64,000 nucleotides of DNA, from assembly GCA_965228855.1 (NCBI GenBank), contig CBDDIJ010000003.1, positions 1,280,001-1,344,000 of the forward strand. The letters are read 5' to 3'. The position numbers and the translations under genes were made by a program. Below, piece by piece: positions 56,935-59,509 of this stretch (the stretch's first letter is position 1; every line of letters starts with the position of its first letter). The notes under the pieces were generated by a model that worked only from the letters and a program-made list of their open reading frames with translations, ran no database searches and was not told the DNA's origin. The DNA is from Candidatus Obscuribacterales bacterium. GTDB taxonomy: Bacteria > Cyanobacteriota > Vampirovibrionia > Obscuribacterales > Obscuribacteraceae.

Positions 56935-58065
56935 TTACATTGATTCGATGGCGCGCTGCCTGTCTCGTTTAGCCTTGTCCGGCTGCCCCAGTTTTTCATA
57001 AACCAGAGCACGTTGCCTGTATGTATCGGGAGATGGGAACGCTGAGTTTTCCAGGGCGTTTGTGTAATCCGCAAGTGCCTGAGGGTACTGTTTTGTCGCT
57101 AAATAGCAATCTCCCCGAAAGCGATATGCATCGCTGTTGTCGGTTTCACGCTTTAGTAGTTTCGAGTATAGTGCGATCGCTTCGTCGTACTTCTTGATTT
57201 TGCGAAGCAGGTTTCCGTATCGGTAAACATAACCTACTGCATTTTTCGTCGATTCAAGAGCACGTTCAAAATATTTGCATGCGCGCTCGCCCTCGTTAAG
57301 ATTCTCGAGGCAACTCGCTGCCGACGCATAGGAGCTTGCATCTCCCGGATTATTCTTGATAGCTCTTACGTAGTCTTCGTAAGCATGTTTATAGTCTCCG
57401 GCATAAAAGTAAAGGTTGGCTCGATACTGATAAGCACATGCTGCGCCTGGAAACCGTTTAATGTAATTGTTGTACACCTTCAGTGCTTCTGCGCTCTTGC
57501 CCTTCTTCTCGAGCGCTACAGCGTGCCAGAGATCGTTGTTTTGAAGTACGGTTTTATCGTGATCGCGAGGCAGCCGAGCTTGACTGTACAATTTGCGCAG
57601 AGTAAGGACGATTTTGTCGTCTGTCGGGTCTAGACCGTAAGCATATTCGTAGGCCGCGGCTGCCCTTCGATAATCCTGTCTCGATTTAAAAATATCGCCT
57701 CTGGCATTCGCGGCTGGTTTAAATGCTTGGTTCAGTTGAAGCGCTTTCTGGTAGTCGGCTTCTGCTTTTGCGTACTCTCGTTTTCTGCTGTGCAGTCGAC
57801 CACGAAGTTGATAGACATTGGGATTATTCGGATATCGCTTGAGCAGGGTCTCTATTTCCGCTTCAGCTTTTGAAATCTCTTTGTGATCGAGCAATTTGTC
57901 GCATGTATAGATATCCTGGATTTCCGGATCTGTCAGCACGTCGCCGCGCGCGGACGAAGCGCAAATCAGGTTGCAAGCAATGGACAGTAAGATTGTCTGT
58001 CTTCGTGGGTAAACGTGCATTTTCGTCGACGGAAAGTTTTTCCATCCTAGCACGCGTGTGACCAT
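56935..58065 (-). CDS. TPR protein, probably exported
   Basis: Multiple TPRs; 14 bp downstream of the SelN-like gene on the same strand. Confidence 0.85.
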   Translation of the reverse strand: MVTRVLGWKNFPSTKMHVYPRRQTILLSIACNLICASSARGDVLTDPEIQDIYTCDKLLDHKEISKAEAEIETLLKRYPNNPNVYQLRGRLHSRKREYAKAEADYQKALQLNQAFKPAANARGDIFKSRQDYRRAAAAYEYAYGLDPTDDKIVLTLRKLYSQARLPRDHDKTVLQNNDLWHAVALEKKGKSAEALKVYNNYIKRFPGAACAYQYRANLYFYAGDYKHAYEDYVRAIKNNPGDASSYASAASCLENLNEGERACKYFERALESTKNAVGYVYRYGNLLRKIKKYDEAIALYSKLLKRETDNSDAYRFRGDCYLATKQYPQALADYTNALENSAFPSPDTYRQRALVYEKLGQPDKAKRDRQRAIESM

Positions 58066-58079
58066 GACTCGAATGCAAC

Positions 58080-59270
58080 TTAGCCGCCAAAATCCTCGTT
58101 CGCAAACGGGTATGTCTGGGTCAGGATTCGATCGAATCCCAGGTAAGGGTCGTCGAGGTCTGCATGTAGAACTTCGCGATATAGCCAGCCTTTCATATCG
58201 TCCGGTTTGAGCGTCCTGTTTGTCTTGACGAGCGAGTCACGAAGATAGGCGTGAATCAGCGGTCTTCTTTCGGACTCGTTCAAGTCTGAATCAGACTGTA
58301 GCGCCGCGTTTAAAGCCGACCTGGTTGTAGCAGTCGTTTCAAGCGGCACCGCAGGTGGTGAAGACGTACTTGCAAGTACTTTCACCGCAGGGACCAGAGG
58401 AGGCGCCGAAAGGCTGTGATAAGCGATTAGCTTACGGTTCATCTGCTCTGGGTTGGACGTCAAGTCAGCAAATTGGTTCTTGATCAACGAAAGCGCCGAC
58501 AAGTATCGAGATTGACTGTAGATTCCGGGAATTACATCGATCACGCTTCCGTCACTTGTACATATGTACGTGGCAATATTTCCATTCACTGTTCTGGTTA
58601 TTGTTTTTCCCGTTCCAAAATCTATTGTGATTTTCGGAACAGGTCGGACCGAGACCCAGGTCGGTTCAAAGTTCTGGTTTATGTAGTTGGAAACTTCCGG
58701 CGACGAGAACAACACGGTTCTCGCAAGTCTTGCGTTCGTTCAGCAGAAACGATCGTCCAGTGCTCCCATCATGTGAAATACAAGTACCGGTTTGCCTGAT
58801 TTCGACGCACTGTTCATTGCCGCTGTTAAGTCTTTATGCCATGAGACCAGTCCGGGTTTGACCTTGACCATAGCCACTGCCGGCGGTGCTGAAATCGGGA
58901 TGCCGCTATCAAGTTTCTGCAACTCGCCTCTGGTCTCCAGACTTTTAAAAAGATCCGGCGCTGTACTTGTTTTCAGCATCGACTTTAACGGCGCCTCGAT
59001 TCGAATTTTGCTGAAGTCGGGCCTTCGCGGAGCGGCTGGTACATACTCCGATCTGATCATCCGCTTCAGCGGAATTTCGATTGCCGCCTTACTCATGTCC
59101 ATCCGGCGCGTCGTCTTCAGCGTTTGATTTGACAGATTTTGAGCCGATGCTGCAGACATTACGCAAAGTCCCGCAATGAGGGACGCTGCAACAGTCAGGC
59201 AGACACTGGTTGAGGTGCGCCGTGATATCGACGGCTGTTTTGCACGCGACCAATTATCGTTGAGATTCAC
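58080..59270 (-). CDS. Putative selenoprotein-N-like thioredoxin-fold protein with in-frame UGA (codon 177)
   Basis: TGA at 58742-58740 is followed by an open frame (TNARLARTV) continuous with the 58080-58715 ORF; GALDDRFC-U motif; 396 aa in total. Confidence 0.75.
58703..58724 (-). promoter_or_regulatory. Candidate bacterial SECIS hairpin
   Basis: GCGAGAAC-CGUGUU-GUUCUCGU begins 16 nt after the UGA; G is the second loop base. Confidence 0.55.
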
Positions 59271-59509
59271 GGTTTAATCCTCTGTCTGCGCCGGAAACGG
59301 ATGACTATGGATGTGCAAATTCAATTCGAGCCATCTGGACCTATTCTGATCAAGTAACGCCGTTTTTGATCTGGTGTAAACCCTGAAGTTCTGCAGGAAG
59401 TTTCCCGGAACTTTTGTGACAGAGCGTAATAATCCCCTTTGCAACTCGCCTTAATGGAAGTATCTTTGATGCTGTAAAAGAGGGGTATCCATGCAACAGG
59501 TCAACGATT

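Follow-up and report, generated by a model that had tools for sequence, protein, structure and literature searches.

A predicted selenoprotein of a large thioredoxin-fold family in a Candidatus Obscuribacterales bacterium

Results

A gene read through an in-frame TGA codon

The gene described here lies on the reverse strand of a 64,000-nucleotide stretch of contig CBDDIJ010000003.1 (the window) from a Candidatus Obscuribacterales bacterium. Read through one internal TGA, it occupies 58080..59270 (-), with a GTG start, 396 codons and a TAA stop, and a Shine-Dalgarno-like AGAGGA (59278..59283, -) is found 7 nt upstream of the start, at a spacing identical to that in an orthologue of 88% identity (L021). 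ORF calling with table 11 splits the gene from 59270 to 58080 into two ORFs of 176 and 211 aa, and the halves join in frame as an earlier note on this DNA had claimed. The TGA (58740..58742, -) is codon 177, preceded by Cys176 in the context ...MMGALDDRFC-TGA-TNARLARTVLFS...; the orthologue column and the Cys homologues mark it as a putative Sec177, with which the first helix of a thioredoxin fold begins in the predicted structure. Contigs from 3 of 4 runs span the codon, and all carry the same letters (two of these runs may be the source of the DNA). A sequencing error at 58742-58740 is unlikely given this agreement, and more decisively because the TGA is common to orthologues at 37-88% identity.

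The contigs of one run (X4) break inside the gene at window positions 58126, 59000 and 59267 and continue with unrelated letters, which may stem from insertions carried by a subpopulation or from faulty assembly. A gene encoding a TPR-repeat protein (window 56935-58065, -) begins 15 nt past the stop of the selenoprotein gene, with which it is possibly co-transcribed; it is common only to the closest relative. In the flanks examined (1.5-4 kb), no neighbour gene was conserved beyond the genus that could point to a substrate, and a promoter and terminator scan for the selenoprotein gene gave results at chance level.

Selenocysteine machinery in the genome and its relatives

The selenocysteine reading put forward in the earlier note called for selA, selB, selC (tRNA-Sec) and selD, and all four scored over their cut-offs in this genome: tRNA-Sec with 73.5 bits (cut-off 47), selA with 520, selD with 371, and selB with 267.5 (cut-off 242), the last when the scores of two pieces lying in one frame are added up, neither passing by itself. 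SelD of this genome has Cys, not Sec, and there is no stop inside the matches of its 3 molybdopterin enzymes. Outside the window, two dense tRNA gene arrays (G000:C3:724518-727973 and 1529761-1530653) include some odd anticodons (Ile-TAT, Cys-ACA and one unassigned).

The genome was compared with 40 relatives, giving a set of 41 genomes which are related, so that the following counts are not independent. selA exceeded its cut-off in 26/41 genomes and tRNA-Sec in 24/41. A profile built from two subfamilies detected the protein family in 23/41, all 23 of which have selA and 22 tRNA-Sec; selA without the family occurred in 3/41 genomes, and neither selA nor the family in 15/41. When homologue records were collected, 6 loci were confirmed of 97 candidates, and the closest named record was Ca. 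Obscuribacterales with 92% identity, which agrees with the earlier suggestion of a cyanobacterial sister lineage, these being non-photosynthetic cyanobacterial relatives. The other named records were Ca. Obscuribacter, Ca. Melainabacteria and three Planctomycetota. A full-text literature search, as far as its listings and accessible texts extend, returned no paper on Sec use in the Obscuribacterales lineage.

Conservation of the TGA codon

The TGA was found at the same column in 13/13 strong loci (this gene and 12 close orthologues; 37-88% identity), and the orthologues are single open frames of 296-441 codons with one TGA each. The two-subfamily profile gave 87 rows over the 41 genomes, and 68/68 matches at E<1e-45 carried one TGA, one of them with a TAG in addition, the TGA column itself having been checked in the loci fetched from among these rows. 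A family copy at G020:C16:9109-9627 has TGA plus TAG inside the match and is possibly a pseudogene.

The Sec column is covered by 53 of the database hits stored (263 in all); Cys occurs there in 49 and Trp, Ser, Glu and Gly once each. Exact look-up recovered 10/10 proteins tested, including all seven Cys-Cys forms sent, so the Cys at the Sec column of these seven is real. Across 200 genomes drawn from the phylum there were 12 hits, all with TGT or TGC; 11 of the 12 genomes were without selA and one (G138) had it. The homologues at codon 177, which the earlier note had named as the place to look, therefore speak for its proposal of Sec recoding within one gene: the 12/12 close orthologues keep TGA, 49/53 sense-codon homologues have Cys, and the Sec machinery is present.

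A SECIS hairpin downstream of the codon

Downstream of the TGA, a hairpin at 58703..58724 (-) has the core stem GAGAAC/GUUCUC and the loop CGUGUU at 58716-58711, as indicated by folding and conservation. The stem is 8 bp, the 6-nt loop starts 23 nt after the TGA, and the energy of the hairpin is -10.3 kcal/mol. The bacterial SECIS model in the available text of PMC13188914 has a loop of 3-9 nt with G among its two leading positions, a stem of 4-16 bp, a distance of 16-37 nt from the UGA and an energy of at most -7.5 kcal/mol, and hairpin 58724-58703 fits these published constraints, with the loop G in second position.

The folding energy alone was not significant: in a 31-nt window 9/200 shuffles reached an equally good fold, z was about 0 in windows of 53 and 83 nt, and under a loose generic rule a stem of >=6 bp follows 2120/19696 flanked TGAs genome-wide. 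We judged the hairpin real on conservation rather than on energy. RNAalifold analysis of 28 TGA-bearing sequences gave a common 7-pair stem with 95.9% of cells paired, compared with 36-57% in slid controls, and 13/28 sequences have a compensatory A-U to G-C change, which is essentially one event between two subfamilies. Among the 12 orthologues, 5/7 hairpin codons were fully invariant vs 0/66 conserved codons elsewhere. The 6-bp core stem is whole in 26/28 TGA forms and has 5 pairs in the other two, while all 13 sense-codon forms have <=4 pairs. On this comparative evidence, hairpin 58724-58703 is a SECIS under selection; the structure that the earlier note called SECIS-like thus proved to be present, to lie within the published constraints, to have frozen synonymous sites and to be absent from Cys forms.

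These data bear on two other ways of reading the codon. If the TGA were a true stop, the locus would hold two separate genes or a pseudogene. This would suit the first database search, in which 116/120 best hits were annotated as C-terminal halves starting just past the codon, and an in-frame GTG at 58715 could start a second half; but that GTG is a frozen codon of the SECIS loop, the break would fall inside one compact domain of the predicted structure, the Cys homologues are single proteins, and among the 41 genomes TGA forms occur only alongside selA. We regard a true stop as highly improbable. Still less credible is a variant code or a suppressor tRNA that would insert Trp or Cys at UGA. 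One database homologue with Trp (P0124) and one with Ser (P0125) at the Sec column, both seen at the protein level only, would be in line with it, yet a search at default stringency found a single tRNA with a TCA anticodon, which scores as tRNA-Sec, and a variant code gives no reason for the SECIS constraint or for the co-occurrence with selA. A coding-potential (dicodon) scan ranked TGA177 1568 of 31668 and gave no support for recoding; as a scan for the selenoproteome of the genome it discriminated poorly, and the selenoproteins counted here are a lower bound.

The gene thus has the features of bacterial selenoprotein genes, namely a conserved in-frame UGA with Cys homologues, selA, selB, selC and selD in the genome, and a SECIS. 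Judged from sequence comparison, TGA177 is almost certainly decoded as selenocysteine. The decoding mechanism is standard: UGA177 would be decoded by SelB and tRNA-Sec, with the in-frame SECIS as guide.

Family members and the exchange of Sec and Cys

The family is large. In a library of representatives at 50% identity, 1975 protein clusters matched at E<=0.001, those listed being mostly unnamed halves or Cys forms, and the profile search of the 41 genomes gave up to 8 family matches per genome. This genome has three more TGA genes (L056:2504-3775, +; L057, TGA at 2892, -; L058, TGA at 2859, -; on its C3 and C5), which belong to a sister subfamily, B (hhalign probability 98.9). They have Thr-Sec, the same SECIS geometry as the Sec177 gene and two extra invariant Cys downstream. 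Subfamilies C (hhalign probability 96.5) and D were found in relatives, both with TGA, and Obscuribacterales alone has at least 4 Sec subfamilies of this superfamily. Two more distant TGA-bearing subfamilies occur in the relatives: L060-L064 have about 626-659 aa and an N-terminal part that weakly resembles PsbP, and L065-L068 have about 245-292 aa and Cys-Sec. In the members scanned, no family exceeded its cut-off.

An intact paralogue (L059 / L038; G000:C5, about 354440-355420, -), also present in G007, carries Cys-Glu where Cys-Sec would stand and lacks the hairpin; among its relatives in the database, P0005 and P0134 show Glu or Gly. It is possibly a non-catalytic form. As it is intact in both genomes, the fold can persist without the Sec nucleophile.

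A 66-row tree placed Cys forms among Sec forms, with 4 changes needed, 3 of them forced by well-supported branches. The tree has a midpoint root and some long branches, and its Sec rows are mostly from one family; it was built without the near-duplicates L021, L024, L048, L050, L062 and L064, without L049, L051 and L052, and without 6 of the 12 Cys loci from across the phylum, the Glu, Gly, Trp and Ser forms and most database hits. Since subfamily B is one column off in the MAFFT alignment (A2), its counts near Sec were unused, and its Sec-to-Sec register was taken from an ungapped DNA alignment and hhalign. On the sequences compared, Sec is likely to be ancestral and Cys derived, and the tree suggests repeated Sec-to-Cys change in the family; such change is called rare in bacteria in the available text of PMC13188914.

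Protein architecture and predicted fold

Residues 1-43 (59142..59270, -) are a probable signal peptide, basic, then hydrophobic, then A-S-A, with a putative cleavage site. The best 13-residue hydropathy is 2.33 here and >=1.43 in 12/13 orthologue frames, the 13th being cut by a contig end. The export-signal-like N-terminus seen in the earlier note is therefore a shared feature, and export of the protein is very probable from its sequence. Two copies of a family repeat follow. Copy 1, with the pattern D-x-x-K-x-x-I-E-x-P-L-K (residues 58-69; 59064..59099, -), was recognized by motif count and has low model confidence; copy 2 (residues 85-96; 58983..59018, -) is a predicted helix with pLDDT about 50-57. 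The motif K..[IVL]E.P occurs in 83/264 stored proteins vs 47/5280 shuffles. The N-terminal region is mostly of low confidence and unstructured in the model, which does not support docking of the N-terminal repeats into the C-terminal helices (pLDDT about 40-57).

The predicted structure has a thioredoxin-fold domain at about residues 136-271 (58458..58865, -), in which the active-site loop is long and a beta-hairpin is inserted. After a low-confidence linker, conservation and the model indicate a helical C-terminal region at about residues 313-396 (58083..58334, -) with an LHADLDDPYLG motif. The predicted fold is a DsbH/Trx7-type strand-helix core whose active-site helix begins with Cys-Sec, in agreement with the thioredoxin-type redox site proposed before. 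The protein is without CxxC, its motif being C-U, and strand order in the model would put Gly-Asn at the usual cis-Pro position. Seven residues, G169, R181, R184, W205, R209, D245 and G249, are invariant in 40 sequences. The residue at the Cys176 position varies: subfamilies B and D, like L054, have Thr there, and the main Cys clade has Ser.

Comparison with known protein families

No Pfam or NCBIfam model reaches its cut-off for this protein. In a structure search, the top matches of the model were periplasmic disulfide oxidoreductase domains, and the closest folds also include the non-catalytic AGR and UAS domains. Among the nearest known systems are the periplasmic thioredoxin domains of the Trx7, DsbH and DsbD-gamma type (PF13899, PF03190; PDB 3f9u, 3ira, 2lst, 2ju5), from which the protein differs: PF13899 gives 16.7 bits against a cut-off of 27, and the protein has Sec, a longer active-site loop and an inserted hairpin, and no CxxC. 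It is thus not a CxxC oxidoreductase of the Trx7/DsbH type by motif or Pfam cut-off. A weak N-terminal segment is shared with the VPGUxxT (NF041383/NF041382) and Trx7/PDZ (NF041199) selenoproteins (E 0.019 and 0.18), but their scores of 14.6 and 10.7 bits stand against NCBIfam cut-offs of 275 and 300, and their motifs, VPGU and CxxU, differ, which sets the protein outside both. A vicinal Cys-Sec is likewise described for the CU-motif selenoproteins SaoL, SaoC, SaoB, HgcA, MbdU and KCU-star in the available part of PMC13188914; none of these gave an NCBIfam match among 40 family members at E<=0.1.

The available text of the 2026 survey of 119 prokaryotic selenoprotein families (PMC13188914) holds none that is SELENON-like and does not contain the term 'SelN'. 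The text of BSepDB describes no such family, and the part of its supplement examined has no Obscuribacterales row and 18 Vampirovibrionia rows that are otherwise named. The family was not found in the deep-Sep supplements, and nothing on it appears in the accessible portions of PMC10298544, PMC4807772, PMC5029168 and bioRxiv 716472. Within its listings and accessible texts, a full-text literature search gave no paper on a bacterial SELENON-like family. By sequence comparison, the gene is an unannotated selenoprotein gene of a large, uncatalogued thioredoxin-fold family, the families of Haft and Tolstoy 2025 being compared through a review table only.

Relation to SELENON

The earlier note had likened the motif to that of SELENON and called the family best known from animals. 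In the available sections of PMC12839072, PMC3541580, PMC8148124 and PMC8639696, SELENON is described as having Sec462 in an SCUG motif, a CU domain that is thioredoxin-like, a type II anchor and an EF-hand, with G463V, R466Q, R469Q and R469W as pathogenic variants; it also occurs in a few algae, according to the part available of PMC7539508. Four of six published positions match here (Cys-1, Sec, Arg+4 and Arg+7), and Ser-2 and Gly+1 do not, the motif being FCUT. The resemblance comprises the Cys-Sec dyad in a thioredoxin-like domain, the two Arg, the extracytoplasmic location (predicted here) and a coding-region RNA element just after the UGA, termed SRE in SELENON (PMC12839072, PMC3541580 and PMC8148124, as far as available). 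SELENON, with calcium-gated reductase activity on protein partners, has 590 aa, a type II membrane topology, an EF-hand, SCUG and a SECIS in the 3' UTR, whereas the protein here, compared by published residues, has 396 aa, a probable cleaved signal, FCUT, an in-frame bacterial SECIS and a C-terminal helical region. Its hydrophobic N-terminal segment ends in A-S-A and looks like a cleaved signal, unlike the type II anchor of SELENON, and no EF-hand was hit. As it differs in architecture, we do not file it as a SELENON member. The likeness holds at Cys-1, Sec, Arg+4 and Arg+7 and does not extend to Ser-2, Gly+1, the EF-hand or the type II architecture; the words "best known from animals" undersell bacteria, given the 1975 matching clusters.

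Descent as the source of the likeness was weighed against convergence, in which a Cys-Sec motif arose separately in two proteins of thioredoxin fold, the Sec reading being right in either case. Convergence would explain Phe and Thr in place of Ser-2 and Gly+1, the lack of an EF-hand hit and the lack of any eukaryotic or SELENON-named sequence from any search. PDB sequence searches with two profiles returned no SELENON chain, a search among proteins of 504-2000 aa gave nothing at E<=0.1 and also missed known bacterial members of that length such as P0207 and P0264, which makes it uninformative, and the fold searches did not list SELENON among their matches. Two natural Cys homologues used as atlas queries matched unnamed bacterial clusters at 0.92-0.93 and Trx7-type clusters at under 0.8. 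However, none of the searches was shown able to return eukaryotic SELENON, Gly occurs at +1 or +3 in sister subfamilies, and the pathogenic Arg466 and Arg469, at +4 and +7 from Sec462 in the published accounts available, correspond to R181 and R184, the two family Arg invariant in 40/40. We consider convergence the less likely reading and common ancestry with the SELENON thioredoxin domain plausible and moderately probable. By analogy, the protein may work like the SELENON catalytic domain.

Discussion

Redox catalysis at Sec177 is very probable, and the best reading of the protein is a periplasmic selenol reductase. Its direction, reduction or repair, is only slightly favoured over others. 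Export would probably proceed via Sec and signal peptidase I. Sec177, at the N-terminus of the active-site helix, would be the nucleophile, with its selenolate held by Arg181 and Arg184. As a periplasmic reductase or repair enzyme, the protein would act on oxidised cysteines or disulfides of envelope proteins, and Cys176, a residue dispensable across the family, could where present resolve the intermediate as a vicinal selenenyl-sulfide. A DsbD/CcdA-type membrane protein might supply the electrons, perhaps with the Sec TlpA-like lipoprotein of this genome as a hypothetical intermediary; DsbD_TM has 3 matches in the genome.

Two further UGA genes of this genome were observed. One (L093:1075-1707, -) encodes MsrA (PF01625, E 1e-44); an in-frame TGA occupies its catalytic position (GUFWG), there is a hairpin of 9 bp, and the N-terminus has a hydrophobic segment. 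The other (L072:1932-2888, -) encodes a lipoprotein that is TlpA/redoxin-like and has a UxxC motif, and its hairpin has the loop CGUGA. With four family members, MsrA and the TlpA-like lipoprotein, this looks like an exported selenoproteome, and an exported selenium redox network would fit the hydrophobic segment of MsrA and the lipoprotein, both from UGA genes.

Alternatively, the selenoprotein may act on a small molecule (a peroxide, sulfoxide, metalloid or anion) held by the two Arg, or may serve as a redox switch, with a partner bound by its short repeats and its helical C-terminal part. The missing CxxC, the specific pocket suggested by the seven invariant residues, the AGR and UAS domains among the closest folds, the retention of the inactive-looking Glu paralogue and the up to 8 family matches per genome would all suit such a role. 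Yet the structure search ranked domains of periplasmic disulfide oxidoreductases highest, and the SELENON CU domain is described, in the available part of PMC8148124, as a reductase of protein partners. We see this role, including its switch version, as a serious rival, though the weaker candidate. For the gene as a whole, a Sec-decoded, exported, thioredoxin-fold redox enzyme of the envelope is the reading that we hold with good confidence.

The finding would add to the known selenoproteins a very large, unlisted family whose members stand in databases as half-proteins (116/120 top hits), and it points to a whole lineage of non-photosynthetic relatives of cyanobacteria in which Sec is decoded, with selA in 26/41 genomes. 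A SelN orthologue in Poribacteria was reportedly described in a doctoral thesis; if so, a bacterial SELENON is not wholly new. Tentatively, the SELENON catalytic domain could descend, Sec-bearing, from a large and old bacterial superfamily of Sec-thioredoxins that underwent several Sec-to-Cys changes, and the SRE could perhaps be a relic of an in-frame SECIS. If the common ancestry is true, the small soluble bacterial members would make SELENON chemistry and the disease positions R466 and R469 directly testable, and the family could serve as an experimentally accessible model of a human protein linked to myopathy, for which our PDB searches found no chain.
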